DNA of 64,000 bases from a virus (IMGVR_UViG_3300042465_006864:69832-133831), one strand, 5' to 3'; shown: positions 698 through 51,242, counted from the stretch's first letter. Translations and numbers: made by a program. The notes: generated from the letters alone by a model not told the origin.

Positions 698-867
698 TTT
701 TTTTTGGTGTTGTTAGTAGGCGGGGAAAGAATAGTCTTTTTTTTGGCATCCGTCAACATTTTTTTTGTTTTATTTTCGAAAAAAAGTTTTGTCATAATGT
801 GTTTTTTTTCTTGACAAGTTTCTAACAGAAAATACTTTTTTGACTTGTTAGGCATCATGCATCTGCA

Positions 868-960
868 TAAACCGTTGAGCGTCAACGACTTACGCCAAAA
901 CGACCCCGAAGGGGTCGCGTCGATGTAAGTTGTTGAGTATCAACGACTTATGACGATTGT
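868..960. repeat. ~93-bp palindromic intergenic element, copy 1
   Basis: TAAACCGTTGA-gcg-TCAACGACTTA, CGACCCC-gaa-GGGGTCG, TAAGTTGTTGA-gta-TCAACGACTTA-TGACGATT. Confidence 0.95.
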
Positions 961-1055
961 CATCGCGCTATGTTGTCAAGATTTTTTTTTCACTTTTTTT
1001 CTGTTAGAGAGCGCCCCCCTTTTTTCTGTTAGAGAGGCGCTGAGTCTAACGATTT

Positions 1056-1112
1056 TTATTTTCGGTCCGCTATCAGGAACAGCAGCACCGCAACAATCAA
1101 GAGAAAAATCAT
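1056..1112 (-). CDS. 18-aa hydrophobic peptide MIFLLIVAVLLFLIADRK
   Basis: Translated by hand; 14 nt downstream of the 1127..1822 stop with an A-rich leader. Confidence 0.45.
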   Translation of the reverse strand: MIFLLIVAVLLFLIADRK

Positions 1113-1126
1113 TTTTTTGTTAGGTG

Positions 1127-1822
1127 TTAGTGTTCGATCACGAAACCGCTTTCGTCTTTTTTCGCCTTGCCTTTCTCGACAAGTCCAACAATTTTTCCCG
1201 CGCCATCAAGAAAGCGTAAATCCGTTTCATCGCCATTTACAACGTCCACGCCTAACCATTTCGAGGGTAGCGACTTTCTGAAAACCATTGCGACATTGCC
1301 GCCCGATTTCAAAATTGATTCTGCGATTGCGCCGTTTGTTTCAGACTTGGAAAAAGTCAAATGATAATTTTGCGGCATTTCACCAGCAAGAAAAGCGGTC
1401 ATGCGTTCGGGGGATTTTGTGTAATCATAGAATTGCACACTAGGAAACAAATCAAAAACACTTTGCCCGTTGAGTTTGATTTTCTCCCATGGTAAATCAC
1501 TGGTAAGATTGAGGCGGAAAACAGCAGTGAGATTTTGCTTTTCGGCAGATTTAACGGCGGCAGTAATTTCTTTGATTAACTGCGACAAGAAAACAGCTTT
1601 ATCCTTAAAGAATAAACGAGTTTTTTCGATGCGTGAATTTTGCACGTTGGAGAATGCGCCCATGCCAGCAGTATTGAGACAGGCAGCGGCACAACCTGCG
1701 CTTGCATCTTTGCAGACGTTGAAGCCAGAGAGAGAGGCGGGAGCGAGGTGAATTCCGAACGTGCGGAAACCGATTTTTTCACCTTTGCGGATTTTAGCAT
1801 TTGCTGTGGTAAGTAATTTCAT
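1127..1822 (-). CDS. GP88-family phage protein (Cys-rich, radical-SAM-like)
   Basis: NVCKDASAGCAAACL, FRLNLTSD, QFYDYTK, YHLTFS, GDETDLRFLD motifs. Confidence 0.8.
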   Translation of the reverse strand: MKLLTTANAKIRKGEKIGFRTFGIHLAPASLSGFNVCKDASAGCAAACLNTAGMGAFSNVQNSRIEKTRLFFKDKAVFLSQLIKEITAAVKSAEKQNLTAVFRLNLTSDLPWEKIKLNGQSVFDLFPSVQFYDYTKSPERMTAFLAGEMPQNYHLTFSKSETNGAIAESILKSGGNVAMVFRKSLPSKWLGVDVVNGDETDLRFLDGAGKIVGLVEKGKAKKDESGFVIEH

Positions 1823-1873
1823 GACAGGGAAAAGTTAGCAGATTGAGAAAAAAAGTCAACAGTTTTTTTTGTT

Positions 1874-2050
1874 TTATTTCAGATTTTGCACAGTGTGAGA
1901 AATTCTGATGAACCAAGCGCAAGAAGCCAAGAAGCCAATGATTGCGCAAGCGTGTGATTCTGTGGTGGTGGATTGTGCGCCCCAAACAATGAACACGATG
2001 CACATAATGAGTGAGATGATCGAAGAGGCAAGGATGATGAAGTATTTCAT
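1874..2050 (-). CDS. Small two-helix membrane protein (58 aa, absent from ORF track)
   Basis: MKYFIILASSIISLIMCIVFIVWG...; leaderless promoter TTGCGC-N17-TACTTT-TCCCCGTC-ATG. Confidence 0.7.
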   Translation of the reverse strand: MKYFIILASSIISLIMCIVFIVWGAQSTTTESHACAIIGFLASCAWFIRISHTVQNLK

Positions 2051-2200
2051 GACGGGGAAAAAGTAGCATTTTATAAGCTAACGCGCAAGTATTTTTTTCT
2101 ATTTTTTATTTATTTTTTTTTGCGTCATAGTGCATTTTTTTGTTGACAAACTCCTAACAGAAAACGCTTTTTTTAGTTGTTAGAAGCCTAACAGATTTCG

Positions 2201-2291
2201 TAAACCGTTGAGCGTCAACGAGTTACACCAAAATGACCCCTTCGGGGTCGCCTCGACGTAAGTCGTTGAGTATCAACAACTTATGACGATT
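2201..2291. repeat. Palindromic intergenic element, copy 2
   Basis: Same core; hairpin loop is TTC (reverse complement of GAA). Confidence 0.95.
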
Positions 2292-2312
2292 CGAGGCGCA
2301 GCGTAAGAACTG

Positions 2313-2564
2313 TTAGAAGTCGCCGCAGCAGCCATCCATGCCCCACTCGCTGATCTCATGGCGATCTTCGTAGGCGGCATCGAGCCAATAGTCTTCGTTG
2401 CCTTCGTCACTGTAATCCGTCCAATGCCCATCGAGGTGGGAGTCATCAAGAAAGATTTCTTCTGGAGGGTCAGGGAGTTGATCGGCAGCGTCTGCGAAAG
2501 CTTCGCAAGCGGCAACATATTCTTCGTATTCGGCGGGGCAGTTGATGAAAGGGTGGTTAAACAT
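2313..2564 (-). CDS. Highly acidic small early protein
   Basis: About 24 D/E of 83 aa, one Arg, no Lys; perfect TATAAT promoter. Confidence 0.75.
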   Translation of the reverse strand: MFNHPFINCPAEYEEYVAACEAFADAADQLPDPPEEIFLDDSHLDGHWTDYSDEGNEDYWLDAAYEDRHEISEWGMDGCCGDF

Positions 2565-2704
2565 GACGGGGAAATTATACTCCGAAACACATAGAAACGC
2601 AACAACTTTTTTCTATTTTATGCAAAAAAAAAGTTTTGTCATAAAGCGTTTTTTTTCTTGACAAACATCTAACGAAAAAAGGTTTTTAACACGCTGCGTC
2701 TTCG

Positions 2705-2797
2705 TAAACCGTTGAGCGTCAACGACTTACGCCAAAACGACCCCGTAGGGGTCGCGTCGATGTAACTCGTTCATTATCAACGACTTATGACGATTGT
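2705..2797. repeat. Palindromic intergenic element, copy 3
   Basis: Same core; loop GTA. Confidence 0.95.
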
Positions 2798-2823
2798 ATT
2801 TTTTTTTATTTTTTTCTTGACAA

Positions 2824-2849
2824 GGGAGCCAGCCTTGCGACTGACTCCC
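2824..2849 (-). terminator. Hairpin downstream of 2863..3114
   Basis: GGGAGCCAG...CTGACTCCC imperfect stem. Confidence 0.4.
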
Positions 2850-2862
2850 GATCTGTTAGATG

Positions 2863-3114
2863 TTAGACTACGAGGTCAATTCCAGAGATGTGAAGATTGC
2901 GATATTTACTTTCGCCGCCATCATCAACGTCTAACGCTTTTACAGTGACGTATCGCTTGCCGTTCGCGGCAAATGCTACTTTGTCCACCGCTTCAATCTT
3001 GAGAACGCGAACGCCATCAGCTTTGACTTTCGAGTTTTCAGCAAAGTAGCGCACGGTTTTGTTGACGAGGGCGGAAACGACTTGTTCGGTAGGTGTATTG
3101 TAATCGAAGAACAT
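2863..3114 (-). CDS. Hypothetical early protein
   Basis: 83-aa ORF with TTGACA-N17-TATCTT promoter. Confidence 0.75.
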   Translation of the reverse strand: MFFDYNTPTEQVVSALVNKTVRYFAENSKVKADGVRVLKIEAVDKVAFAANGKRYVTVKALDVDDGGESKYRNLHISGIDLVV

Positions 3115-3148
3115 AACGAGGAAAAGATAGAAGATTTTTGCGGTATTG

Positions 3149-3346
3149 TCAAGATTCTTTTATGAAAACTGAGATTATCCAAGCGGAACAGCAAGCAGTG
3201 AAAAGAGAAAGCGATCCCAAAAGATAAGTTGTCATATTTTGAGGGCAGCACACAAGAAACGAAAGACTTGCAAGCGGAGATAAAAAGCCGCTAGTCACAA
3301 GACAAATAGCGATAGTTGATTTGATATTTTCGATGGTTGATTTCAT
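3149..3346 (-). CDS. Small two-helix membrane protein
   Basis: Two hydrophobic segments; own TTGACA-N17-TATCTT promoter. Confidence 0.65.
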   Translation of the reverse strand: MKSTIENIKSTIAICLVTSGFLSPLASLSFLVCCPQNMTTYLLGSLSLFTACCSAWIISVFIKES

Positions 3347-3412
3347 AGTAGTTAGTTGGTTGCGAGAGAAAGATAGAAGATTTTTGCGAGATTGTCAATA
3401 AGTTTTTTTGAT

Positions 3413-3724
3413 TTATTTTTCGACAATCTCAAAAACTGTTGTGATGTATTCGCGCACAGTGCAGAATGTTTTCGTGGTGATGTTTTCCCAAGGGATGATT
3501 TGTTCAATCACTGCGCCATAGTTGCAGTATTGAGCAAGACCTTCAGTCCTTGTAACACCCATGATTTCATCACCTACTGCGTAGGTTTTGATTTGACCAT
3601 AACCATAGTCAATCGTCAATTCAACTTTTGCAAAGTATTTATCCTCATATTTTTCTGTTGCTTTGTTAGCAGTATTGAGGGCGATTGCTTTATATTGTGG
3701 CTTGAGGTTAGGTTGAGCGTTCAT
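3413..3724 (-). CDS. Hypothetical early protein
   Basis: Start reassigned to 3724 (MNAQPNLK), downstream of TTGCGC-N17-TACACT. Confidence 0.7.
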   Translation of the reverse strand: MNAQPNLKPQYKAIALNTANKATEKYEDKYFAKVELTIDYGYGQIKTYAVGDEIMGVTRTEGLAQYCNYGAVIEQIIPWENITTKTFCTVREYITTVFEIVEK

Positions 3725-3887
3725 GGTTAGTATTGGTTGACGGGGAAAGTGTAACGCATAACGCATGAAAGCGCAAGAACTTTTTTATCTTTTTTTCTTT
3801 TTTTATTTTGCGGCATAATGCATTTTTTTCTTGACAAAACTCTAACAGAAAATGTTTTTTCGTGCATAGTATAGCACAGCGTATGCG

Positions 3888-3980
3888 TAAACCGTTGAGC
3901 GTCAACGACTTACGCCAAAACGACCCCGAAGGGGTCGCGTCGATGTAAGTCGTTGAGTATCAACAACTTATGACGATTGT
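3888..3980. repeat. Palindromic intergenic element, copy 4
   Basis: Nearly identical to copy 1. Confidence 0.95.
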
Positions 3981-4009
3981 TATTGTGCGATGCTGTCAAG
4001 TTTTTTTTC

Positions 4010-4064
4010 GTTAGACTAACAGTTTTTTTTCTGTTAGCCTAACGGTTTTTTTCGTTAGACTAAC
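4010..4064. repeat. Three GTTAG-N-CTAAC palindromes separated by T-tracts
   Basis: 4010-4020, 4033-4043, 4054-4064. Confidence 0.85.
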
Positions 4065-4242
4065 GGATTTGAATGAAGTGCAGTGACTGATAGCCAACCC
4101 AACCTTTTTCAAAGATGGCAAAGTTTTTTTCATCCCAATGCGAAAAAATTCCGTAGTTTGTTTTTGTTCCTTTTGTTAGAAGGCTAACAAGTTTTGCGTG
4201 AACGGCGGCGAAGTAAGCGGGAGTAAGTGAAGAAGTTTTCAT
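4060..4242 (-). CDS. Hypothetical early protein
   Basis: 60 aa; TTGCGT-N17-TACACT-TTCCCCGTC-ATG. Confidence 0.7.
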   Translation of the reverse strand: MKTSSLTPAYFAAVHAKLVSLLTKGTKTNYGIFSHWDEKNFAIFEKGWVGYQSLHFIQIR

Positions 4243-4271
4243 GACGGGGAAAGTGTAACGGTTTTTTCGGA

Positions 4272-4448
4272 TTAACGCAAGCTTTTTTTTGTTTTATTTA
4301 TATTTTTTATTTCGACCATTCCATTTACTTCGTGAGCTATTTTTTCAGCCTTAGCAAGCAATTCTGAGAATGTTGAACCGATATTGTTAGGAGCGAAACA
4401 ATTAACGAATGCGCCTTCTGAGTTTCTGATGATAATGAGCTTTTTCAT
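4272..4448 (-). CDS. Hypothetical early protein (58 aa, absent from ORF track)
   Basis: MKKLIIIRNSEGAFVNCF...; TTGACT-N17-TACACT-TTCCCCGTC-ATG. Confidence 0.65.
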   Translation of the reverse strand: MKKLIIIRNSEGAFVNCFAPNNIGSTFSELLAKAEKIAHEVNGMVEIKNINKTKKSLR

Positions 4449-4525
4449 GACGGGGAAAGTGTAGCGGTTTTTTGCGATGAAGTCAACAATTTTCTTTTGT
4501 TTTTTTTGGGGGGGAGTATTGGAAC

Positions 4526-4732
4526 TTATGCCAGTTCCTCGGCTTCGATGATGTCATCATCGTGCAGGTGCTTGGGGTGAAAAGGGCAAGCACCAAGAAA
4601 ACCAACATAAGATTTTTCATTGGCAGTAAACTCGACTTCCCAGTCTGCCCAATTATCATCCACACGATCAGCGATGGAAACGAAAGACAAGTCGGAAACG
4701 GTGGATGCGGAGAATTGAAGTAACTTATTCAT
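4526..4732 (-). CDS. Acidic small early protein
   Basis: 68 aa; TTGCGT-N17-TATACT-TTCCCCGTC-ATG. Confidence 0.7.
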   Translation of the reverse strand: MNKLLQFSASTVSDLSFVSIADRVDDNWADWEVEFTANEKSYVGFLGACPFHPKHLHDDDIIEAEELA

Positions 4733-5084
4733 GACGGGGAAAGTATAACCTGAAACGCGTAGAAACGCAAGAACTTTTTTGTGTTATGCGAAAAAAACTT
4801 TTGTGTCATACGTGAAGAAAAAACTTGACAAGACCCCCCCTATTTCTCAAAAAATGCGCAATAGTTCTGTTAGAAAAGAGCGGGGGGGATACTATTCTCA
4901 GTCTCCCAAACTCCCACCAACATCACTCCCCACCCAGAGCGCCAGACGGTGTTCTGTGCTGCTCCGCACCAGACCCCCCACCCCTTTTGTCAAAATCGCG
5001 AGACACATTCTCAGAACAACCTAAAAAAACCCAAAAAAAATCCCCCACCCTGTTTTCATAAAACCTTTTGTAATCAGAAAAAAG

Positions 5085-6813: not shown

Positions 6814-7200
6814 ATGAGCGTTATTTACTGTTCTGAGTGCGGAAAAAAGCACGAATATAATTTTGCAAAGCCCAACTTTTGTTCTAGTTGTGGCAGTCCC
6901 TTCGGGGCAGCTAAGCTTAAAAAGCAAAAGCCTAAAGAAGAAGAGGAAGAGGACTACGAAGATGAAGATGAATATGAGGACGAAGAAGATTTCGAAGATG
7001 ATGGCGAATCATTTACCAATTCTACTCGCGTTCCCAATATCAGAAAAATCCAAGTAGATATTGAAACAGCAGCACATTACAATACTTTTGATCTTGGATC
7101 TATTATAGGATCTGAATCAAATCCAGTGCCAAAAGGTTCAACACCTCGAAGAAAAAACCGTCCAACTTCTCTCGAAGACTTTAAACAGAAAAGAAAGTAA
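6814..7200 (+). CDS. Zinc-ribbon protein with acidic linker
   Basis: CSECG...FCSSCG followed by an E/D tract. Confidence 0.75.
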   Translation: MSVIYCSECGKKHEYNFAKPNFCSSCGSPFGAAKLKKQKPKEEEEEDYEDEDEYEDEEDFEDDGESFTNSTRVPNIRKIQVDIETAAHYNTFDLGSIIGSESNPVPKGSTPRRKNRPTSLEDFKQKRK

Positions 7201-7890
7201 GTGGAATCTCCTAAAAAAAAGACATACGAAGAGTGCTATACTATTATAGACACTGTTGTTTCAAAATATCAAAGCAAGTGGAGGCTCAACGCCATAAACT
7301 GGTTTGACTTTGAAGATGTAGCGCAAATTGTTAAAACTCACATTTTTAAAAAGTGGCACTTGTGGGATCAAGAGCGACCATTGGAGCCTTGGGTTTCGAG
7401 AATCGCTTCTCACCAAATCAAAAATATAGTACGCAACAATTATACGAACTATGTTAAGCCTTGTATGTCTTGCCCCCACAATCTTGGAGACAATCTATGC
7501 TCTTTGACGAGATCAGGAGATCAAAACTCTTCTTGCACAATGTATGCAAAATGGGCTAAATCAAAGCGTCAAGGATATGGCGTAAAGATGCCGCTAGCAA
7601 TGGAAAACCATCAGCAAGAGATTGATTTATTTACTGATTCTGGTGTTGATTTTGATGCATCTATCGAAAGAATAAATGAAGTTCTAAAAAAAGAATTATC
7701 TGAAGAACATTATCAAGTGTATATGATGTTGTTCTTTGAAGATGCGTCAGAGGACGATGTAGCAAAGTATATGGGGTATAAAACTTCTGAAAAGAATCGT
7801 GCCGCTGGCTACAAGCAGATTAAAAATCTCAAAAAAATGCTGAAAGAAAAAGTGCAACAAATTATTGCCAAAAACGACATCATACTATGA
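7201..7890 (+). CDS. Phage sigma-70-family factor with Cys-rich insert
   Basis: Region 2-like FEDVAQ...WDQERPLEPWVSRIASHQIKN; C-terminal HTH SEDDVAKYMG; CMSC...C...C insert. Confidence 0.7.
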   Translation: MESPKKKTYEECYTIIDTVVSKYQSKWRLNAINWFDFEDVAQIVKTHIFKKWHLWDQERPLEPWVSRIASHQIKNIVRNNYTNYVKPCMSCPHNLGDNLCSLTRSGDQNSSCTMYAKWAKSKRQGYGVKMPLAMENHQQEIDLFTDSGVDFDASIERINEVLKKELSEEHYQVYMMLFFEDASEDDVAKYMGYKTSEKNRAAGYKQIKNLKKMLKEKVQQIIAKNDIIL

Positions 7891-9863: not shown

Positions 9864-11723
9864 ATGGCGTGGGAAAAAGGACATCAAATCTTACATAAGA
9901 AATTTGAAAATGTAAACCAAGAAATCTTGGACACAGAAGGCTTCATTGAAGAAGAAAAGGCTAAAGTTCTTTTGTACAAGTTCTTGCGCGAGAATCCATC
10001 TTTTACTTCTGAGCTTATTTCAGGAATTTCATTGTTTCCATTCCAACACATGGCTATTAAGGCGATGATGGAGACAGATTACTTTTTGGGAATCTGGAGT
10101 CGCGGTCTTTCCAAATCATTCACCACTGGTATTTTCGCGGCTATGGATGCTATCTTAAATCAAGGTGTTTATATTGGCATTATATCAAAGTCTTTCCGTC
10201 AAAGTCGAATGATCTTTAACAAGATCGAAGAAATTGCCAAGAGTCCAAAAGCTGCGTATCTATCACAATGCATCACAAGAGTAAGTAAATCCAATGACCA
10301 ATGGGTTATGGAAATCGGGCGCAGTAAAATCATCGCTCTTCCTCTTGGAGATGGTGAGAAACTAAGGGGTTTCCGTTTCCAACGAATGATTATTGACGAG
10401 CTTCTTTTGATGCCCGAAAAAATCATTAACGAAGTTATTCTTCCGTTCTTGGCGGTTGTGGAAAATCCTACAGAGCGTCAAAAGATCTACGATCTTGAAA
10501 CAAAAATGATTGAGGCGGGGAAAATGACAGAAGAAGATCGTCACAGATGGTCTCATAACAAGATTATTGGACTATCTTCCGCTTCATACAAATTCGAATA
10601 CTTGTATAAGCTTTATCAGCAATACGAAAACCTTATTCTCAATCCTTCTAATAAAGATAATGCTCATCGAGTGATTATGCATTTGAGCTACGACTGCGCC
10701 CCGAAACAACTTTACGATCAAAACCTTTTGGATCAGTCTAAAGCCACCATGAGCGAAGCTCAGTTTGAAAGAGAGTTTGGCTCGATCTTCACAGACGATA
10801 GCTCTGGTTACTTTAAGGTTAGCAAAATGGCAGCTTGTACAGTTCCTGATGGCGAAGGACAGTCGGTAGAGGTCGTTGGTGATAAAAATAGCGAATACAT
10901 ACTATCATTTGACCCATCTTGGTCAGAGAGCGAAGGTTCTGATGACTTTGCTATGCATGTAATTAAACTCAATGCTGATAAACGATTCGGGACAATAGTT
11001 CACTCGTATGCTTTGGCTGGTGCAAACTTGAAAAAGCACATTGTATACTTTCACTATCTTTATACGCATTTCAATATACGAATGATTGTGGGTGACTATA
11101 ACGGCGGCGTTCAGTTTATTAATTCGTGCAATGAAAGTGAAATCTTTAAAAAGGCGGGGATTCAAATCCAATGCATTGATTCAGATTTTGATGATCCACA
11201 AAACTACAATGCCGATTTGCGCAGTGCTAGAAATCAATACAATGTAGAATCAAAGAAAATATGCATACTTAGAAAGCCTAGCTCATCATGGATTCGTTCG
11301 GCAAATGAGATGCTTCAAGCTGCTTTTGATCATAAGAAGATTTGGTTTGCTGGTACAGCTTTAGATGACGATTATTCGCGGCAAAAGTCAGCAGTGATTC
11401 CTATTGATGAGATTGCATTCTCACGATTCAACGATGAAGGCGACTCATATGCAAAACAAATAGATTTAATTGAGCATTTGAAAGATACAATTGATGCTAC
11501 TAAAGTTCAATGCGCATTGATTCAAGTATCTACGACAGCGAACGGTTCTCAATCATTTGATTTGCCATACAACCTCAAGAAGCAGCGAAACGCTGATAAA
11601 GCAAGAAAAGACTCTTACTCTGCTCTAGTGCTTGGTAACTGGCTTATGAACATTTATTTCGATATGATGGCGACTCCAGAGGCAGCTGCACAGACTACAT
11701 TTGTTCCAATGTTTGTTGATTAA
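9864..11723 (+). CDS. terL: Terminase large subunit
   Basis: LFPFQ, WSRGLSKS Walker A, LRGFRFQRMIIDE Walker B, LSSAS, FEREF, SFDP nuclease, KDSYSAL. Confidence 0.9.
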   Translation: MAWEKGHQILHKKFENVNQEILDTEGFIEEEKAKVLLYKFLRENPSFTSELISGISLFPFQHMAIKAMMETDYFLGIWSRGLSKSFTTGIFAAMDAILNQGVYIGIISKSFRQSRMIFNKIEEIAKSPKAAYLSQCITRVSKSNDQWVMEIGRSKIIALPLGDGEKLRGFRFQRMIIDELLLMPEKIINEVILPFLAVVENPTERQKIYDLETKMIEAGKMTEEDRHRWSHNKIIGLSSASYKFEYLYKLYQQYENLILNPSNKDNAHRVIMHLSYDCAPKQLYDQNLLDQSKATMSEAQFEREFGSIFTDDSSGYFKVSKMAACTVPDGEGQSVEVVGDKNSEYILSFDPSWSESEGSDDFAMHVIKLNADKRFGTIVHSYALAGANLKKHIVYFHYLYTHFNIRMIVGDYNGGVQFINSCNESEIFKKAGIQIQCIDSDFDDPQNYNADLRSARNQYNVESKKICILRKPSSSWIRSANEMLQAAFDHKKIWFAGTALDDDYSRQKSAVIPIDEIAFSRFNDEGDSYAKQIDLIEHLKDTIDATKVQCALIQVSTTANGSQSFDLPYNLKKQRNADKARKDSYSALVLGNWLMNIYFDMMATPEAAAQTTFVPMFVD

Positions 11724-25003: not shown

Positions 25004-28000
25004 ATGTCACAGTCTATTCAATTACAAGTTACTCAGGTCGGATTAGAGCAAAGTATCGCCGCTGCAATGAAGCGTGTAGGTAGTTCTTCGCAGATTAACT
25101 TAGGGACAAGCTCAAAGCAAATTAACGCATTGAGCCAACCATTGGGCAGGATCACTGGTCAGGCAGACGAGTTCTCTAAATCCATGGCAGCAGCAAATGC
25201 CCGTGTTTTGGCATTCGGAGCTTCTGCTGGTATTATCGCAGGTGTGTCTTCGGCAATGTCTGGGCTTTTGGCTAGTACTATTAAGGTAGAAAAAAGTCTA
25301 GTAGAAATTAGCACCGTCTTAAATAAGACTGGTTCGGAACTTGACAAGTTTGGTCAAGATATTTTTAACGTGGCGAAAAATACTGGCAAATCGTTTGACG
25401 AAGTTGCTAAAGGTGCATTAGAATTGGCTCGCCAAGGTTTAAGCGCAGAAGATACTCTTACTCGATTGAACGATGCTTTGATTCTATCAAGACTTTCTGG
25501 ATTAGATGCTACGCAATCTGTTGAGGGTTTGACCGCTGCATTCAACTCTTTCAAGAAATCTGGAATCACAACAGCAGAAATCCTAAATAAAGTTGTGGCT
25601 GCTTCTCAAAAATATGCAGTATCGGAAAAAGATATTATTGAAGGTCTCAAGCGATCTGCTTCAGTTGCTAATTTAGCTGGTGTTTCGTTTGAAGAGTTAG
25701 CGGCTGTTATCACAGCAGTTCAAGAAAAAACCGCTAGAGGTGGTGCTGTTATCGGTAACGCTTTTAAAACAATTTTTAGCAGAATACAAGATAAGACTGT
25801 TTTGTCTGATTTAGATGAAATGGGTATTGCTGTGACCGACCTAGCAAATGGGGAGGTATTGCCAGCGTTAAAAATATTAGAAAACTTGGCTAAAAAAATG
25901 GAAGGCTTTTCTCAAATTGAGCAAGCGGATATTGCCAAAAAACTAGGTGGTGTATATCAATTAGATAAGTTGCTAGCTGCATTAAGTGACCTTTCTGATG
26001 AAGCATCGGTTACAACAGGAGCTTTAAATGCCATGGAAAAAGCTGGAAATTCAGCATATCAGAAAAATGCAGTTCTTAATCAAACTCTAGCAGCATTATT
26101 AAATAAAGTTGCCGTAAGTGCTGAACAGCTTGGCGCAAAACTTGGTGAAATTGGCGTAACAGATAACTTGAAGAATGTTTTGGGATTTTTCAATAGCTTG
26201 CTAGAAGGAATTCAAAAGATTTTGGGTGAGGAAAGTGGTTTAGGAAATTTAGTCCGTGGATTAGTAAAGGGTCTTGGAAGCTTTTTGGCTGGACCTGGTT
26301 TGGCTTTATTTGGTGGTATTATTCTTAAACTCTCCAAGGATTTAGTACAGTTTGGATTTGCCAGTTTAAAAGCATTCTTTGGAATTGGCAAAGCGGCTAA
26401 AGAAGTTCAAAATGTTGAAGGAGCAATTTCTCAAATATTGTCTAAGAACGTCAATCTACAACAACAGTTGTTTGCATTAGAAGGCAATAGAGCTGCCCAA
26501 TTGAGATTAATTACTGGAGCATTGGTTGAGCAAGAAGCTCTTCTTCGAAGAAGCGCTAATATTTCTTCTGGACTAGCAGCGCCTCTTTATAATGTAGGAG
26601 CTAGAGCTAAAAGTTCTGGCTTGCGCATTGGTAATAGTGCTGGTGGTTACATGCCAGCAGTCGCCCAAGAAAGCAAATCAATTCAAAAGGGAGTTGGTGG
26701 CGCTCGCGCAGGTGATAAGCCTGTTGTTGTGCCGAACTTCAACTTTGGTAGTGGTAAAAAGGGAACCATGGTCGCTCATACTGGCGAGTATATTGTGCCG
26801 AATTTCAATGGAAGCGGTGGATCTGCTGTGTTTAATAGGCAAATGGTTCAATCTATGGGATTGCCATCAGGAGCAAAGAAAATAAATGCGGCTGGTGGAT
26901 TGATTCCAAATTTTGCAAAAGTTTCGGAAATTGCCAAATATAATCCTAGAGTAGCAACCGCTTTACAAAAATCAGATTTAACGGATAAAAGATTAAATAA
27001 ATTAGATTTAGTAAATTTATTTAATAACAAATATCAACAAGAATTTATTCCTAAACTGCCAAATGAATCAGCCAATCAATACGAAGAAAGAGTGACTAGA
27101 TTACTTGGATATAACAATAATGACACTTTAAAACATCGTGGAAGTTCTGCTGTAGATGGATTTATTAAAAAATCAAATTCTATAAAATTATTAGAAGTTA
27201 AATCTGGAGCTTGGAATTCTTATGAAGTTTTAAATAAATTTCTAAGAGCGTTACCAGAAAATTATGGAGCAAATAATGCTTTAGATATTTGGACGGGTAA
27301 TAGAGATGATATAAAGGTGCAAGCGACTATAGCTTCACCAATTAAAAAAAACTTTGCAGCGAAACAGGCTGGTTTATTTTCTAGGGCTGCAAATGGCTTT
27401 ATTCCAAACTTCGCGCCAAAGTTTAATGCCGAAACAGTTAGAAAATATGCTGACGAAATTCAAAAATATAAAGATCCAACAAAAGATTTTTATCAATTCC
27501 CCGATGGAACAGGTGGCTATGGATCTCAGATCAAAAATGTTTTGTCAAGACAACAATCAAAAGCTGTTGCTAACAAGCAAATAAAGGAGAAAAAAATAGA
27601 AGACAGGGGATTCTTTAATTTAAGTGCCGATTCACTTGGTGGAATACTTTTGGTTTCTCCTAGATTTGGCAAAAGCCAAGGCTCATTAGATACATCAATG
27701 CAGATTGGAGAAATCCCATTCTTCAATCAAGACAAGTCAATGTCAATTGACAAAAACAAATATATCAAACTGTCTGGCATCAAAACAACTAATACTCCAA
27801 GCGGCAGGGATTTAAAGTCGTTGAGAGCAGATGTTAATGAATTATTTTCGGACGGAATCGTTAGACTTGCGAATAGGCTTTACGGCGAAACTTTTGATCC
27901 CGCTAGCGGAGGTGAATTTTCTGCAAAATTACAATCCTTAGATGCTTCCAAAAAACAACAGCTACTTCCTCCTGCTGCACAAGGTGACTTGTTTGAAGCT

Positions 28001-31000
28001 GCTGGAAAGGTAGCTCTTAATAGTTTTGCAAATTTAGAATCTTTATTTGGATCTGGTGAGCAAAATAGACCATTCGATTTCCAAAATCCAGAAGCATTGC
28101 GAAAAGTATTTGGTGTTAATGCTAAAAGGGGTGAAGCTAAGAGAGGTGGAGAGAAAAACTTCGGTTCTTCTAAGCAGGTTCAGGGAATAATTAAAAAAAT
28201 CTTTAATGATTCTGAATATTCATCAAGCGCTATAAAATCTTTGCGTGGTCAAGGTGCGTTTGATTTTTCCAAAGCACAAAAAGCTGCGCAAGAAAAAAAT
28301 GCTGCTGGCGGTTTCATTCCTAATTTTTATGATTATAAATTAAAAAAACAAGGAAAAGATAGTAAACGCGAGATACTTGATAAAATAACAGGCAGCTATT
28401 TAACCTATTCAAAAAATAATGATAACTTAGAGATAAAAACAGCATTTTCCTATAAAAGGGGAGCAATGTTGGGATTGTATAATAATTTAGGAAAAGTAGC
28501 AAAAAAATCTGGAAAAAGTCTATTCTCTCCAATAATTATTCCGCAAAGAGATAGATTAAAATCTTTTAACGAAAATTCAAGCATAGATGAAATATTAAAA
28601 GCAGTATATCCACAATTAGTATATAGAGAAAAAAGCAATTCAAAAAATACAAAATTAAAGTTATACTTAGGAGGAAATGGCATAGACTTGTCAGGAAAAA
28701 ATATTTTCCAGCAAGTTGCTAATTATTTTAAAAATACATCGCCTACATCGCCTAAAGATTTATTAAGTTCTATAGAAGATCGTAAAGTTTCAATTACAAG
28801 CCTTGTAGATACTTTTGCAAATGGATATATTCCAAATTTCGCTAATCCACTTCAAGCGGCATTAGGTCGCGAAATGGCTGCTGGCGTTCCTGCTTCACAA
28901 ATTTATATTGATAAGAATTCTTCGCTAAAAAATGCGGCAAACCCCATGGGCTTGATGGTTGCTAATCGTCGTGACGAACCTGCTGGTGGATTCCAAGGCA
29001 TTAATCGTGCAAGAAGAGAAGGAGCCAATCCAATGATGTATGGTGCTGCTGGTGGGTTTGTGCCGAATTATAACAATCCGTATGGGGCGAGAACAATGTA
29101 TACTCAATCGGCTGCTCCTTCTTTGCCGCCTCTATCAATGAACGCCCAACAAACTGCTTCATCTGGAGCAGCTCAACCAATGGCAGCACTAACAAATTCT
29201 ACTGAAGAAGTTGTAAAAGCAAATAGAGACATGCTCGGAACTATTTTTGCAGTTCAAGCTGGCATGTCTGTATTAACTGGAGCTACAGATGGAGCTACTA
29301 ACGGATTCGCAAAATTTGCTAATAGCTTCGGCACAGTAGCAAGTTCCGTCTCAACTGTTGTTTTTGCTGGACAGGGATTATCTCAAGCTTTTGGTGGTGC
29401 AGAAAAAGGACTTGGTAAAGTCGTTGGAAAATTAGGTATATATGGAGCTGTAGCCGTAGGAGTCTATACTGGATTTCAAGAATTAACAAAATATCTTGAT
29501 TCTACAAATCCAGAAATTCAAAAGGCATCTGAAGCCATGTCAAGAGTTTCAGATGCAGCAAGCAGAGCCGCTGTTAATCTTAACACGTTAAATCCAGCTT
29601 TAAAAGAGCGAGTACAGAAAGAATCAAAAAAATTAATATCTGATGCTAGAAAATATACTACTACTGAGTATGCAACTAGCGGAGGCACAATGGGCGCTTA
29701 CGGTTCTAGCGCTACTAGAGAAGTTATTAGATCTGCTGAATTTGAAGGAGTTAGCGATCAAGTGCAAACTGGTTTTGAAGAGCTTATCGCACAAGCCTCT
29801 GGAGCTGGAATTAGCGATAAAGCCATATTAAAATTGATAGCACCGAGATTTCAAAGCGACAGGAAAATGACAACGAATGAGGTTGAAGAAATTTCGTCAT
29901 CATTAAGTAATTCTATATTAACAATTGCAAAAGAAGGTTCTCCAGAAGCAATTATTAAGAGATTAAGCAAAGAGGATAGGGAAAAATATGCAAGTATGAT
30001 TCCAAAAGACGTAGAAAGTGCTATTGCAAGTAGAGCTGGATCTGATGGAAAAGGTCGATCAGATAACGCATTAGCTGGCTTGCAAGAAGAATTTTATAAC
30101 GCTGGAATTGAGGGAGATATAGCTAGACAAGAATCTATTCGCAAAACAATTGATCTATTAAGAGATCAGAAAAATGCTGAAGAAAATGTTGCAAAAGAAG
30201 CGATTGATCAAATCAAAACATCTATTGCACAAGATAAATTAAGAAACGCTTTAGCCATGTCTATTGCGAAAGCCCGCAGCTTCGGTAATGATATATTAGG
30301 GCAAGAGTTATTAAAAGGTCAAGAGCTTGGAACTCTTGATGAAAAAGCTTTGCGCAATTTACAAGACAAAATAGCATTGCGTGATGTAGATCGAGAGCTT
30401 CAAGATGCAACCTCCAATTTAATACAAGAGCAAATATCACAAGCTAAAAAAATTACAGCAGACTCTGAAAAAGCTCAAGCACTGCAAGAAAAATTAAATT
30501 CTTTAAGCGCTGAAGATCTTCAAAACAGATACGTGGTAAATGAATTATTGAACGAAACTAGCAAATTGCTTGATCAAAATTCTGGACTAACAGATCAACA
30601 AAAGATAGCTCTACAGGCAACATTGGACAAATTATTTGATGAAAATGAATTAAAAAAAGACAATTTACGACTAACCCAAGAACAAACTGGAGAATACAAA
30701 GAACAAGCTCGCCAACTTGATTTAATAAGCCAAGCATCGAAGAGGGCATTAGAAGCTCAATCTTTTAATAGAGAAATTGGAGCGACTAAATCTATTAACG
30801 CTAATGATTTACAAATTCGCGCACTTGAGTCTTCTAAATTAGGAGCTTCAGATTCTCAAATTAGACAAATTGATCAACAGATAGCCGCTATCAAAGCAAA
30901 TACTATTGCGCTAGAACAATCTAATGCAAAAAATAAAATATTCGAAGATATGAAAAGTGAATTGTCTGCTAACAATAAAGTTACAGATGAAAATACAAAA

Positions 31001-33379
31001 CAAGCTTTGGAAAATAAAATTAAAGAAGCCAAAACAATAGATGAATTAAAAAGTTTGGCAGCGGTGATGTTCATGAGCAATAAGGGACAAGATCCACTAT
31101 TGAATCAGAGTCAGATGCAAGATTTTATTCAAAAATATCAAGAACAACTTATAAAACAAGGTATAGAGTCAGAGCAAGCTCTAAAACAAGCACAAGCTGA
31201 TATTAATGATGCTGGAAGAATCGCACCTGTTATTGATGCATTAGAAATGTTTAGACGCTCTCTGCTTGCAACTACACAAATCATTGATCAAAAAATCGAA
31301 GATATTAAGCTTCAACAACTCACTTCCATATCTGGAAAAGAGCTTATTCAAGGTAATTACGATATTGAAACATTAAATCAACAAAGAGGGCAGACCAAAG
31401 AAGAAGCCGCGAGAATAGCTAGACAACGCCAAAACAAAGGATTGGGACAGCTCTTCGCCGAAGAATATACTAAAACAGATGAAGAAAGAGCATTAAACAT
31501 CAATCAAGCAATTGTCGATGGATCTGTCCAATTCAAAAACAATATGATTGAAGGCATCATGGGTGCTGTAGAAGGAACAAGTTCTCTTAAAGATGGTTTG
31601 CGTTCTGCCGCTTATGAATTCGTCAAAATGATCAACCAAAAAATGATGAGCAACTTGGCTGACAAAGTTGTTGGTGGAAATGTTCAGAGTGGAACTGGTC
31701 AAACTAGCGGTGGATTGGCTGGATTTTTCTCTAATATGTTTGCTTCTGGAGGCAAGGTAACTGGTGGCTCTGGATCGAAAGACGATGTTCCAGCAATGCT
31801 TATGGGCGGCGAATATGTTGTCAATAAGAAAGCTGTGTCGAAATATGGTCCAAAATTCTTAGAGGCAATCAACAATGGCACACTCAATGGTTATGCTAAA
31901 GGTGGAAAAGTTCAAAAAGGTCCACAAGGTAACTTCTATGCTCCAGGAACTTTTGGTCAAGGAGCTATCAGCGGCAAAAGAAATCTTTTGGATTTCGCTA
32001 CTCAAACTGGCACATCTGGAAAATTCGATCAAATGATCAACGAGTCAGGCTATCAATCAATTGCTCTTGAGCCTGAGAGTTCGAGACTTTCTGTTTCTGG
32101 AATGAGAAATTCTCCAATGTTTGATGCAACTCAATCAGCCAAAGGACAGGCTTTTGATTTGTATTTACAACAGTATAATGCTGAAAGAGAAGCAAAGAAA
32201 CAAGCGAAAGAGCAGAAGAAAGCCTTGATAAAACAAGTGGGCATGTTGGCTTTGTCTGCTGCATTGGGTCCCGTGATTAATGCGGCTGGCACTGGATTTA
32301 GTGCCGCATTTAAAGGCGCTTCTGGTCAAGGATTTATGAGTCAAGTCGGAGCTGGATTCAAAGGAATTGTTTCAGGTGGTAGCGTAGGAGGTCAACAAGT
32401 TGGAGGTTTATCTAATTTGTTTAGTAGCGCTGGTAAAGCATTCTCTGGTGATTTTGCTGGTGCAGCTAATCAGTTTAAAATGTCTCAAATTGGAAATGGA
32501 AATCAATTGAGTGATCTTTATAAGTCTGATCCGAAATTTGCTTCTTATATTGATCAAAGAGGCGGATTTGACACTTCTGGTGCGTTAAAGGCTATTCCTG
32601 TTTCTGGAATTGGTGGCGGAATTTCTTCTGGCATTGCGAAAGGATCTAGCTCTTTTAGAGCGACAGCTTTTGGAAGACCAGATATTGATGCGACTACAGC
32701 GCAAGAAATAAGAAGTGGTCAATTCAAAAAAATGGGCGGGGATATTAATATAGGATCTGGAGGTATAAGATACGCTGGATTAAGCAGTAATTTACCAACC
32801 GTAGCTGTTCATCCAAGTAGTGGATTTAAAGCTGGCGATAGAATTTCTGTAATAAGCAACTTATTCCCCAATGGTAGAGAGTTTTTGGTAGCTGGTACTG
32901 GACCAGCCCCAGGAAGACTAGATTTCTTTTCAGATAATAAACAAGAGTATAGACAGCTTGCTGGACAAAGAATTCAAAGCGTTACTAAAAGAGCTATTGG
33001 CGGCATGATTCCATCAACATCAGGCATTGACACAGTTCCAGCAATGCTTTCTGGTGGAGAATTCGTCATGAATCGCTCTGCCGTTCAAAGCATTGGCGCA
33101 CCAAATCTTCAATCAATGAATGCTGGTGGAACTTCCATCACTTCAGAAGAGACGAGCAAAGAACTCAACGAAAAACTCTTGGCAAAACTTGATGAACTTA
33201 TTGGAGCATCTGGTTCAACTGGAAACATTACAATAAACGTGGCTCCATCTGGTCAAACCTCTCAAGAAACTTCACAAGATCCATCTGCAAGCCGTCAACA
33301 GCTTGCTCGCCAAATCAAAGACGCAGTATTGCAGATCATCAACGACGAGAAAAGAATTGGAGGCACTCTAAGAAGATAA
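25004..33379 (+). CDS. Tape measure protein (TP901-type) with internal cargo domains and a 3D-like domain
   Basis: ELARQG, TARGGAVIGNAFKTIFSR; DDVPAMLMGGEYVV and DTVPAMLSGGEFVM; SD AAGGAG. Confidence 0.92.
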   Translation: MSQSIQLQVTQVGLEQSIAAAMKRVGSSSQINLGTSSKQINALSQPLGRITGQADEFSKSMAAANARVLAFGASAGIIAGVSSAMSGLLASTIKVEKSLVEISTVLNKTGSELDKFGQDIFNVAKNTGKSFDEVAKGALELARQGLSAEDTLTRLNDALILSRLSGLDATQSVEGLTAAFNSFKKSGITTAEILNKVVAASQKYAVSEKDIIEGLKRSASVANLAGVSFEELAAVITAVQEKTARGGAVIGNAFKTIFSRIQDKTVLSDLDEMGIAVTDLANGEVLPALKILENLAKKMEGFSQIEQADIAKKLGGVYQLDKLLAALSDLSDEASVTTGALNAMEKAGNSAYQKNAVLNQTLAALLNKVAVSAEQLGAKLGEIGVTDNLKNVLGFFNSLLEGIQKILGEESGLGNLVRGLVKGLGSFLAGPGLALFGGIILKLSKDLVQFGFASLKAFFGIGKAAKEVQNVEGAISQILSKNVNLQQQLFALEGNRAAQLRLITGALVEQEALLRRSANISSGLAAPLYNVGARAKSSGLRIGNSAGGYMPAVAQESKSIQKGVGGARAGDKPVVVPNFNFGSGKKGTMVAHTGEYIVPNFNGSGGSAVFNRQMVQSMGLPSGAKKINAAGGLIPNFAKVSEIAKYNPRVATALQKSDLTDKRLNKLDLVNLFNNKYQQEFIPKLPNESANQYEERVTRLLGYNNNDTLKHRGSSAVDGFIKKSNSIKLLEVKSGAWNSYEVLNKFLRALPENYGANNALDIWTGNRDDIKVQATIASPIKKNFAAKQAGLFSRAANGFIPNFAPKFNAETVRKYADEIQKYKDPTKDFYQFPDGTGGYGSQIKNVLSRQQSKAVANKQIKEKKIEDRGFFNLSADSLGGILLVSPRFGKSQGSLDTSMQIGEIPFFNQDKSMSIDKNKYIKLSGIKTTNTPSGRDLKSLRADVNELFSDGIVRLANRLYGETFDPASGGEFSAKLQSLDASKKQQLLPPAAQGDLFEAAGKVALNSFANLESLFGSGEQNRPFDFQNPEALRKVFGVNAKRGEAKRGGEKNFGSSKQVQGIIKKIFNDSEYSSSAIKSLRGQGAFDFSKAQKAAQEKNAAGGFIPNFYDYKLKKQGKDSKREILDKITGSYLTYSKNNDNLEIKTAFSYKRGAMLGLYNNLGKVAKKSGKSLFSPIIIPQRDRLKSFNENSSIDEILKAVYPQLVYREKSNSKNTKLKLYLGGNGIDLSGKNIFQQVANYFKNTSPTSPKDLLSSIEDRKVSITSLVDTFANGYIPNFANPLQAALGREMAAGVPASQIYIDKNSSLKNAANPMGLMVANRRDEPAGGFQGINRARREGANPMMYGAAGGFVPNYNNPYGARTMYTQSAAPSLPPLSMNAQQTASSGAAQPMAALTNSTEEVVKANRDMLGTIFAVQAGMSVLTGATDGATNGFAKFANSFGTVASSVSTVVFAGQGLSQAFGGAEKGLGKVVGKLGIYGAVAVGVYTGFQELTKYLDSTNPEIQKASEAMSRVSDAASRAAVNLNTLNPALKERVQKESKKLISDARKYTTTEYATSGGTMGAYGSSATREVIRSAEFEGVSDQVQTGFEELIAQASGAGISDKAILKLIAPRFQSDRKMTTNEVEEISSSLSNSILTIAKEGSPEAIIKRLSKEDREKYASMIPKDVESAIASRAGSDGKGRSDNALAGLQEEFYNAGIEGDIARQESIRKTIDLLRDQKNAEENVAKEAIDQIKTSIAQDKLRNALAMSIAKARSFGNDILGQELLKGQELGTLDEKALRNLQDKIALRDVDRELQDATSNLIQEQISQAKKITADSEKAQALQEKLNSLSAEDLQNRYVVNELLNETSKLLDQNSGLTDQQKIALQATLDKLFDENELKKDNLRLTQEQTGEYKEQARQLDLISQASKRALEAQSFNREIGATKSINANDLQIRALESSKLGASDSQIRQIDQQIAAIKANTIALEQSNAKNKIFEDMKSELSANNKVTDENTKQALENKIKEAKTIDELKSLAAVMFMSNKGQDPLLNQSQMQDFIQKYQEQLIKQGIESEQALKQAQADINDAGRIAPVIDALEMFRRSLLATTQIIDQKIEDIKLQQLTSISGKELIQGNYDIETLNQQRGQTKEEAARIARQRQNKGLGQLFAEEYTKTDEERALNINQAIVDGSVQFKNNMIEGIMGAVEGTSSLKDGLRSAAYEFVKMINQKMMSNLADKVVGGNVQSGTGQTSGGLAGFFSNMFASGGKVTGGSGSKDDVPAMLMGGEYVVNKKAVSKYGPKFLEAINNGTLNGYAKGGKVQKGPQGNFYAPGTFGQGAISGKRNLLDFATQTGTSGKFDQMINESGYQSIALEPESSRLSVSGMRNSPMFDATQSAKGQAFDLYLQQYNAEREAKKQAKEQKKALIKQVGMLALSAALGPVINAAGTGFSAAFKGASGQGFMSQVGAGFKGIVSGGSVGGQQVGGLSNLFSSAGKAFSGDFAGAANQFKMSQIGNGNQLSDLYKSDPKFASYIDQRGGFDTSGALKAIPVSGIGGGISSGIAKGSSSFRATAFGRPDIDATTAQEIRSGQFKKMGGDINIGSGGIRYAGLSSNLPTVAVHPSSGFKAGDRISVISNLFPNGREFLVAGTGPAPGRLDFFSDNKQEYRQLAGQRIQSVTKRAIGGMIPSTSGIDTVPAMLSGGEFVMNRSAVQSIGAPNLQSMNAGGTSITSEETSKELNEKLLAKLDELIGASGSTGNITINVAPSGQTSQETSQDPSASRQQLARQIKDAVLQIINDEKRIGGTLRR

Positions 33380-49776: not shown

Positions 49777-50107
49777 AATAAACAAAAAACACATACTCGC
49801 AAGACTCACGCTTGTCCCCACAAAGGATAAGCGTTTGTTTTATATGCGAGAAATGAAGATACTTAATGACTTATGCGACAGATATTCGCTTGAGTTTATG
49901 AATGCCGTTTCTTTTGATAAACAGTTTGACTCTCTGGCTTATTTAGTCTGCGACAAACTTCAAGAGACAATGGATAAAAAGTTTCGCGCATTCAATTTTA
50001 AGGTTGACTTATCTAAGTATCCCAATTACGATATAGGCGAGAAGGTTGGCGAAGATGCCAAGATAGACAAAAAAATAAAATCATTAAAGAACTTTTTAGA
50101 TGGCTAA
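49763..50107 (+). CDS. Hypothetical protein
   Basis: TTGACA-N17-CATAAT-N8-ATG promoter. Confidence 0.7.
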   Translation: MAKSKINKKHILARLTLVPTKDKRLFYMREMKILNDLCDRYSLEFMNAVSFDKQFDSLAYLVCDKLQETMDKKFRAFNFKVDLSKYPNYDIGEKVGEDAKIDKKIKSLKNFLDG

Positions 50108-51242
50108 AATTAAACAAGATAAAGATAAAGAAGTATTAAAGTCAAGCTCAGTGCTAGGCTCATTCTTAAAACAGAATTCCGAAGATCACTACAACTTTGA
50201 GGATGAAATTGATTACAAAGTTTCTAGCAGTTCTTTGCAACTAGACTTGAGACTCGGTGGAGGTTTGTGTCCAGGTTTGCATAGATTTTGCGGAATGAAT
50301 GAAGGAGGCAAGACAAGCGCTGCGCTCGCGTTTATGAAAAACTTTTTGGCAACCGTTCCAAATTCAAAAGGATTCTACATCAAAGCAGAGGGTCGTTTGT
50401 CTAAGGAAATGAGAGAAAGATCAGGTATCAAATTTGTTTTCAAGCCAGAAGAATGGGAAGCTGGAACATGCTTTGTATTTGAAAGTAATATTTATGAGAC
50501 TGTTGTCGCGGCAATGCGCGAACTCGTTACCAAAAACGAAGAAGACAATCGCTACTATTTCTTGCTTGATTCTGTCGATGGACTAATCACAAAGGGAGAC
50601 TTAGATAAAGACTTCGAAGACTCAAACAAAGTAGCTGGTGGCGCTGTGATTGCCGCAAACTTTATGAAGCGTCTTTCGATTGCTCTTGCCAAGAGAGGTC
50701 ATATGGCAGTATTCATTAGTCAAGTTCGCGCTGATATTAAGCTCGATCCATATTCCAAAGCTCCAGTGCGCCAAACAACTGCCACAGGCGGAAACGCTCT
50801 GCTGCACTTTGCGAATTTCATTCTTGAGTTCGAGCCGCGATATAAAGGAGATTTAATTCTTAAAAATCCTTCCGATAAGACAATTGATCCTGTTAACAAT
50901 CCAATCATTGGTCACTTCGCTAAAGTAACAGTGAAAAAATCGCCTAATGAAAAAACCAACCTCACTATTTCTTATCCAATTAAATATGGTCGCACAAATG
51001 GCAATTCTGTATGGATTGAAAAAGAAATTGTTGATTTGCTTTTGCTGTGGGAGTTTCTTGGCAAGGGTGGCGCTTGGTATACAGCAACAGAAGAATTTGA
51101 AGAACTTCTCGCGGAAAATTCTCTTCCAGCATTTGGCAAAGTACAAGGGCTAGAATCAGTATTTAACAAAATCGAACAAGACCCACAACTCAGCAAATTC
51201 CTTGTTGGATATTTCAAGAAAGCAATTTGCAATGAAGTTTAA
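50100..51242 (+). CDS. recA: RecA/UvsX-like recombinase
   Basis: LDLRLGGG, GMNEGGKT, LDSV, ISQVR, TGGNAL, GGAWY. Confidence 0.85.
   Translation: MAKIKQDKDKEVLKSSSVLGSFLKQNSEDHYNFEDEIDYKVSSSSLQLDLRLGGGLCPGLHRFCGMNEGGKTSAALAFMKNFLATVPNSKGFYIKAEGRLSKEMRERSGIKFVFKPEEWEAGTCFVFESNIYETVVAAMRELVTKNEEDNRYYFLLDSVDGLITKGDLDKDFEDSNKVAGGAVIAANFMKRLSIALAKRGHMAVFISQVRADIKLDPYSKAPVRQTTATGGNALLHFANFILEFEPRYKGDLILKNPSDKTIDPVNNPIIGHFAKVTVKKSPNEKTNLTISYPIKYGRTNGNSVWIEKEIVDLLLLWEFLGKGGAWYTATEEFEELLAENSLPAFGKVQGLESVFNKIEQDPQLSKFLVGYFKKAICNEV

Follow-up and report, generated by a model that had tools for sequence, protein, structure and literature searches.

Composite intergenic repeats that probably serve as portable homology for gene shuffling in the putative early region of an uncultured freshwater phage

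Introduction

The mechanism by which phages turn over the small, rapidly evolving early genes with which they handle the host is known from few cases, and the question is raised again by a 64,000-nt stretch of viral DNA (IMGVR_UViG_3300042465_006864:69832-133831; the whole of this stretch is called the window below). Near its left end, four long and similar intergenic elements divide a series of small leftward genes into units of one to three genes, with a promoter-like site for each gene. A preliminary description of the window had proposed that the elements bound exchangeable cassettes and have ends like the attC sites of integrons, and had also mentioned the promoter-early stem-loop (PeSL) cassettes of T4-type phages. 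What, then, are these elements, and by what means do the genes between them come and go?

The window is the right part of the complete genome (133,831 bp, with direct terminal repeats; 100% by CheckV) of an uncultured freshwater phage. Small genes, on the minus strand throughout, fill the first 4,750 positions of the window and some 8 kb further to the left, and the layout of genes and promoters suggests that this block holds early genes. The answer that we favour, with reasonable if not firm confidence, is that the elements are composite intergenic regulatory repeats of this putative early region and that they are shuffled by homologous recombination.

Results

The elements of the window belong to a ten-copy family

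All four elements stand where they had been placed, at 791-1008 (E7), 2124-2318 (E8), 2638-2861 (E9) and 3812-4070 (E10, earlier given as 3812-4016), and a repeat search recovered every one of them, both as a 130-nt repeat family (859-988, 2192-2321, 2696-2825 and 3879-4008) and as an 81-nt family in the left flank (760-840, 2092-2172, 2607-2687 and 3780-3860). Each contains a 94-nt core (866-959, 2199-2292, 2703-2796 and 3886-3979), with pairwise identities of 82-91 out of 94 positions. The landmarks named in the preliminary description occur in the same order in four out of four elements, namely G(T/G)CATA (at 791, 2124, 2638 and 3812), TTGACA (811, 2143, 2658 and 3831), CTAAC (822, 2154, 2669 and 3842), the core, and GTTAG (1003, 2312, 2855 and 4010). 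The inverted outer ends are also as described, with an exact 12-nt pair at 821/997 and pairs of 7-11 nt for the remainder; in E7 the left arm is made up of GTCATAAT, a T-run, TTGACAAG and CTAACAG, and the right arm of TTGTCAAG, a T-run and CTGTTAG. The stop codons at 1127, 2313 and 2863 do lie inside a minus-strand CTAAC, and the stop at 4060 is in the neighbouring box. The window contains 16 copies of CTAACAG where 5.5 +/- 2.6 are expected (a count of 16 was reached in 0 of 100 shuffles), 11 of them in the first 4.9 kb, and both CTAAC and GTTAG are 4-7 times denser across the early block than in the rest of the genome.

Genome-wide, there are 10 cores, all in a single orientation and confined to 64,113-73,717; six lie to the left of the window, and the first two stand in tandem. 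The observation is thus larger than first reported, the four elements being members of a 10-copy family in a 10-kb leftward block.

Some variants of the arrangement were also seen. A distinct sub-type of core always directly precedes another core, at about 96 nt from start to start and in one or two copies; in this genome it stands at 64112-64301, the far end of the early block. The relatives L032, L013 and L014 have it too, and in some relatives it sits at an emptied slot. In E10 the core is followed by three tandem GTTAG-N-CTAAC palindromes (4010-4064), spaced at 21-23 bp with T-runs between them and placed directly after the stop codon of a 60-aa gene, which resemble an operator array or a multi-frame stop set. 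An eleventh copy of the left-arm motif, without a core, lies at 4795-4873 (GTCATA, an A-run, CTTGACAAG and CTGTTAG) and borders the rightward genes.

Anatomy of the core and its relation to the early promoters

The core consists of two 27-bp palindromes, each with 12-bp arms (GTAAsTyGTTGA) and a 3-bp spacer, flanking a hairpin with a 3-nt loop. All 20 occurrences of the half-site fall inside the array and none elsewhere in 134 kb, which makes this 12-nt sequence a simple handle for finding such arrays in metagenomes. The hairpin (902-916, 2235-2249, 2739-2753 and 3922-3936) has a 7-bp G+C stem, the six inner pairs of which are invariant in 72 of 72 unique cores, and after it the mRNA-sense strand reads TTTT in the main group of relatives. 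Folding of whole elements gave z values of -8.4 and -7.8. The loop triplets among 74 unique cores include two reverse-complement pairs, GAA (33) with TTC (17) and TAC (12) with GTA (10), so the loop sequence appears to be free and to flip often. The spacers of the flanking palindromes are likewise found in both orientations, and together with the loops this suggests that small loop inversions are frequent here. One arm resembles the consensus for IHF, and the first bases of the core resemble the end of a CRISPR repeat; we take both to be chance resemblances.

The core lies 20-191 nt beyond the stop codon of the upstream gene, and in 7 of the 10 copies the distance to the next promoter motif is 117-145 nt (exactly 145 nt in four). 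The predicted early promoters are of the type TTGAC-N17-TAnnnT, followed by a C-rich stretch that abuts the start codon or lies about 25 nt before it; the site at 728-756 is an example, and others are found at 58-86, 482-510, 3124-3152, 3370-3398 and 4458-4486, each of them on the minus strand. There are 14 promoter-like sites where 7.2 +/- 2.4 would be expected. Where TAnnnT stands about 9 nt before the ATG, with the conserved C-rich stretch between, the predicted mRNAs have little or no leader and no Shine-Dalgarno sequence, a possible hint to the host group. The TTGACA boxes of the elements themselves were considered as promoters and rejected, as neither strand has an acceptable -10 sequence at 16-19 nt; the sole candidate that the scan gave in a flank is a weak ATGACA-16-GATACT site at 963-936.

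Relatives gain and lose whole units

Relatives were collected by pattern scans and comprise 16 viral stretches, 28 metagenomic stretches and 3 labelled as metagenome-assembled genomes (MAGs). A profile search covering the first 44 stretches and this genome gave 159 non-overlapping cores in 45 sources, and the 155 that are full-length represent 77 unique sequences.

Identical gene order in relatives, which the preliminary description had named as an outcome that would refute it, was not what was seen: whole units of one or more genes plus an element are present or absent at four slots (the slots being assigned by eye from maps). The unit of a 266-aa gene is absent in one lineage; that of a 76-aa gene is absent in another, which keeps the two adjacent cores; and that of an 83-aa acidic gene is absent in two. 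The slot before the gene of the GP88 family has three alternative contents among lineages: it is empty in this genome and in two other lineages, it holds a paralogue of a 117-aa gene in two, and it holds a different gene in a sixth. The 117-aa gene is found in three different contexts. The cores of the main group share a degenerate left arm, and those of divergent lineages form perfect palindromes beside the same gene families, a sequence pattern that is compatible with concerted evolution.

The element is also present on contigs labelled as Saccharibacteria MAG and Actinomycetota MAG (L047/L049, 139 kb; L048, 22 kb). The 139-kb contig is similar in size to the present genome and shares the layout of its array; it probably represents the genome of a phage, binned with a bacterium, and gives a weak hint to the host at most.

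Chimeric elements point to homologous recombination

Some of the elements are chimeric. E7 of this genome combines the left flank of one element of the relative L003 with the core and right flank of the next, the switch lying to the left of the core. In the relatives L032 and L011, from which the 83-aa unit is absent, the element is E8-like on its left and E9-like on its right, with a switch inside the core and mosaic patches. Two further indels, one of a 70-aa gene and the other of a 90-aa gene, have their breakpoints within ordinary early promoters at a distance from all cores, and one hybrid promoter remains. Switch points that vary within shared homology, and that do so at two kinds of repeat, bear the mark of homologous recombination. 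As a unit of about 200-250 bp is repeated ten times in a single orientation, the copies are expected to act as portable homology, and general homologous recombination between them, and also between early promoters, would delete, duplicate or move modules consisting of one or more genes and an element.

The preliminary description had suggested a search for a recombinase elsewhere in the genome. A site-specific one was not found, the complete genome having no tyrosine recombinase (PF00589, for which the control genomes all match), no serine recombinase (PF00239), no Y1 transposase (PF01797) and no TnpB (PF07282). Searches for RecT and ERF found neither, and AAA_24 was below its cut-off. The only recombinase family detected is RecA, represented by a 380-aa gene at 50100-51242 on the plus strand; this phage protein could carry out the recombination of the modules, which we infer to be of RecA type.

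Some points tell against shuffling by homologous recombination. The 'parents' of the chimeras are diverged relatives and not the true parents; neither circles nor deletion variants were directly seen in the material, which is limited to assembled contigs; and the order of the backbone is largely collinear, so the shuffling is modest. A joint of 2638 to 4490 is present in assembled contigs of RNA libraries, with 23 letters on its short side, which is below the limit of reliability.

Possible roles of the core

If the elements are regulatory repeats, the palindromic core may end or insulate one transcription unit, the next having its sigma-70-like promoter at a set distance from the core. The position of the core after the stop codon, the one orientation that all copies have, the invariance of the G+C stem and the TTTT that comes after it in the mRNA sense all point that way. 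Other features are awkward for this proposal. A simple terminator scan flags one of the four cores of the window (that of E8, on the minus strand), and the U-run is just 4 long; sites that look like terminators are, overall, no commoner than expected (6 against 6.3); and the hairpins of divergent relatives have no U-run. In the divergent relative L015 a canonical terminator precedes the palindromes, and there are additional palindrome units without a hairpin. Sites with a hairpin and a T-run also follow several cores on the opposite (plus) strand. Lastly, the two strongly conserved 27-bp palindromes are unexplained by a terminator.

Between 8860 and 10500 this divergent relative, L015, has up to six 27-bp palindrome units per intergenic region, some without the central hairpin, and a triple 20-nt direct repeat follows at 10505-10555. 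A small RNA gene on the plus strand was considered for the hairpin and T-run sites, which follow 3 of the 10 cores of this genome, but no plus-strand promoter was found.

The leading alternative, which we regard as possible though unlikely, is that the palindromes are operators, to which a dimeric DNA-binding protein would attach, whether from the phage or from its host. This protein would silence, insulate or time the early modules, in the manner of stoperators or of the Cluster O repeat (see below), and recombination would be a by-product of the repetition. The pairing within the palindromes is due to conserved columns and not to covariation (under a three-hairpin model, 91.8% paired cells against 91.2% in shuffles, and 5 pairs changed on both sides against 4.8), and one arm position varies between G and C without compensation, leaving 27 of 72 cells unpaired at columns 13/31. 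A DNA site would also suit the confinement of the half-site to the array, the fixed spacing between the palindromes, the fixed distance to the next promoter and the occurrence of the hairpin loop in both orientations. In L015, moreover, the palindromes, including the units that have no hairpin, stand between a canonical terminator and the next promoter, where little RNA is expected. There is a precedent in the 17-bp dyad repeat of Cluster O mycobacteriophages, for which binding of a dimeric protein is predicted (PMC4351075, in the part drawn on here). However, no candidate binding protein was identified, every copy has the same orientation relative to the genes, and the first palindrome shows a strand bias that is unexpected for a DNA site: its pairs are 95% canonical on the mRNA-sense strand and 78% on the other, with 158 A.C against 11 G.T cells.

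A more speculative proposal, which we consider doubtful, is that the palindrome pairs are the sites of a dedicated and previously undescribed phage system, either a dimeric regulator that insulates the early modules or a structure-specific nuclease that cuts extruded hairpins. Regulator and nuclease alike are compatible with the frequent flipping of the loops, with a half-site confined to the array, and with palindromes that stay conserved in relatives even though the genes have diverged. Were the regulator version true, every early module would be locked or insulated in a virulent long-tailed phage, giving a palindromic counterpart of stoperators; the nuclease version would provide programmed recombination hot spots and, with them, a cassette exchanger that needs no integrase.

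It is improbable, in our view, that the core acts as RNA of the mRNA sense, as a long or three-part hairpin at the 3' end of early transcripts that would either stabilise these or be a double-strand-specific processing site by which read-through transcripts are separated or destabilised. The strand bias of the first palindrome favours this strand, and at three arm positions G and A alternate recurrently, a change that preserves pairing, as G.U, on this strand only. Five main-group cores were folded singly: the predicted energy is -37 to -45 kcal/mol for four of them, and in five of five the mRNA-sense strand comes out as slightly more stable than its complement. Early gene bodies are present in contigs of four RNA libraries; these are assembled contigs without strand information, in which DNA may be present and the uncovered parts, cores included, are uninterpretable. 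The shares of sequence words found in the libraries were small and support no claim on habitat. Covariation under the three-hairpin model is modest (0.085 against 0.078, with 14 of 500 shuffles as high), the loop changes orientation freely, and the palindromes of L015 lie after a terminator. Rfam gave no match within the elements and a single chance-level match elsewhere in the region, where a tRNA scan also found none. A long nested hairpin is the minimum-energy fold of single cores, but was rejected as covariation is absent (482 of 500 shuffles as high). The defined 27-bp palindrome makes either a binding partner or a role as RNA directly testable.

The array is cassette-like, but an integron mechanism is not supported

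The attC sites of integrons have boxes that read RYYYAAC ... GTTRRRY, and what they have in common is structure rather than sequence. The view of the locus as a cassette array holds in so far as the elements delimit units that differ between relatives; the attC mechanism is the part that was not supported. The likeness of layout is real, in that an ORF is followed by a folded imperfect palindrome, in one orientation, and whole units are gained and lost. As in integrons, the stop codon is often in the first box: among the relatives, distinct genes adjacent to a core (at 250 nt or less) have their stop inside CTAAC in 17 of 45 cases, against 17 of 187 other ORFs, the rows of this comparison being non-independent and its ORF list containing spurious frames. 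Several gene ends read GTCTAAC, which fits RYYYAAC.

It is nevertheless very improbable that these are attC-like elements with CTAAC/GTTAG boxes at which a site-specific recombinase acts. The complete genome lacks tyrosine and serine recombinases and with them an integrase; the switch points are internal and variable and do not fall at the boxes, so there is no fixed crossover; and some of the indels have promoters at their borders. A promoter-like site (TTGAC-N17-TAnnnT) precedes each gene, whereas integron cassettes are mostly promoterless and depend on a common promoter for expression. Both boxes match the consensus in one of the four elements of the window, E9 (ATCTAAC / GTTAGAT), and in E7, E8 and E10, of the two boxes closest to the core, at most one does so. 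The boxes are about 165-190 nt apart, beyond the range of attC sites, and the cores are nearly identical, so that here the sequence is conserved and not the structure alone. The array fails the test for four features that define integrons.

That selfish miniature mobile elements of a MITE-like or palindrome-associated kind have spread here through intergenic sites is just as hard to credit, for although they have terminal inverted repeats of 7-12 nt (CTAACAG... / ...CTGTTAG) and many copies, tandem ones included, the genome has no transposase of the four families searched, the flanks as read show no target-site duplication, the copies form one block in one orientation, and by eye no relative has an empty site that differs by the element alone.

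Comparison with promoter-early stem-loops and other phage repeats

The mention of PeSLs proved to be the right lead. These are promoter-early stem-loop cassettes of T4-type myoviruses, and the definition and model used here are those in the parts of Arbiol et al. 2010 (PMC2839356) and Comeau et al. 2014 (PMC4122927) drawn on. In those accounts a PeSL is a repeated intergenic sigma-70-like early promoter with an A/T-rich upstream region and a stem-loop (PMC2839356). In the present phage the upstream region of a promoter forms part of the repeat seen at 760-840 and in its copies, the motif contains a stable intergenic stem-loop, and the indels between relatives are flanked by motifs and leave a chimeric motif behind. 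In the same sources PeSLs have the stop codon of the upstream gene at the edge of the repeat, they are concentrated among small genes of unassigned function, the modules that they flank differ between relatives with a single chimeric repeat remaining, homologous recombination extends over about 100 bp or more, and modules move with their own control signals; in each of these respects the present array is alike or, for the recombination and the movement of modules, appears to be so. On the reading that we favour, the array is cassette-like and repeat-bounded, and is shuffled by homologous recombination as T4-type PeSLs are.

There are also differences. The stem-loop of PeSLs as described there is a short G/C stem that overlaps or adjoins the promoter, whereas here the 94-nt palindrome-hairpin core is separate from the promoter and about 100 nt upstream of it. 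For PeSLs the accounts drawn on report terminator activity and mini-circles as demonstrated, whereas this array is known from its sequence alone. The hosts of the elements differ as well, being T4-like myoviruses in one case and an unrelated long-tailed phage in the other. The present genome encodes a large terminase, a DNA polymerase of the family-A type, a ribonucleotide reductase, a DnaB-like helicase, a sigma-like protein and a tape-measure protein of 2791 aa (25004-33379, plus strand), the length of which implies an unusually long tail. The best match of the terminase among cultured phages is to SPbeta-type phages, at 23% identity, and this and the tape measure indicate that the phage is not T4-like; blastn of the region against cultured phages gave zero matches. 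The array thus appears to work like PeSLs without sharing their descent, and it has a far larger core that is also better conserved. The literature on PeSLs, as far as drawn on here, concerns T4-like phages, cyanophages, jumbo phages or archaeal tailed viruses. Portable promoter and stem-loop homology that would move gene modules is now seen in an unrelated, uncultured freshwater lineage, with natural examples of the gain, loss and relocation of units and with a repeat that is more elaborate and more conserved.

Two mycobacteriophage repeats offer further comparisons. The 17-bp dyad repeat of Cluster O phages, of which the part of PMC4351075 drawn on reports more than 30 copies, is alike in having inverted motifs 3 bp apart, in tens of copies of which many are intergenic, in phages without an integrase, and in showing some asymmetry of the spacer relative to transcription. 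It differs in that its arms are 7 bp long and its copies are genome-wide with few if any in rearrangements (PMC4351075), whereas here 12-bp arms are paired around a hairpin in one block and stand at the borders of indels. The stoperators of Cluster A phages, many repressor sites that stop transcription elongation across the phage genome (PMC9283540, in the part drawn on), are a possible functional analogue. They are short and asymmetric and are bound by a monomeric repressor in temperate phages, whereas the sites here are palindromic and neither a repressor nor an integrase was found.

Genes of the repeat-bounded units

All of the genes named here are on the minus strand. The unit between E7 and E8 holds the GP88-family gene (1127-1822; PF17338, E 5e-49) together with a 58-aa ORF (1874-2050). 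The early block has two GP88 (PF17338) paralogues, which share about 68% DNA identity over about 690 nt; the second is at 64914-65930 of the genome, and this left paralogue has 338 aa here, whereas some relatives have it in split or shortened form (232 + 119 aa). The sole gene between E8 and E9 (2313-2564) encodes the 83-aa acidic protein, whose unit is the one missing in two relative lineages; the protein has 24 D+E and 1 K+R, with a pI of about 4.05. This composition recalls DNA-mimic proteins, and neither a family nor an Atlas lead was obtained for it. Between E9 and E10 there are three genes (2863-3114, 3149-3346 and 3413-3766), the third of which forms a separate unit elsewhere in relatives. 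To the right of E10 lie the small early genes 4060-4242, 4272-4448 and 4526-4732, each with its own promoter-like site and with no core between them.

Of ten early proteins searched, eight had no family match in Pfam or PHROGs at E < 0.001, and these searches yielded GP88 plus two weak matches only; Atlas searches of the cassette proteins gave nothing above 0.87. These searches thus yielded no lead to the host-takeover or anti-defence roles that the preliminary description had suggested. Outside the leftward block, a 128-aa protein encoded at 6814-7200 on the plus strand has an N-terminal CxxC...CxxC motif and an acidic run made by 9-bp repeats (6935-7006), and its gene immediately precedes that of the sigma-like protein (7201-7890).

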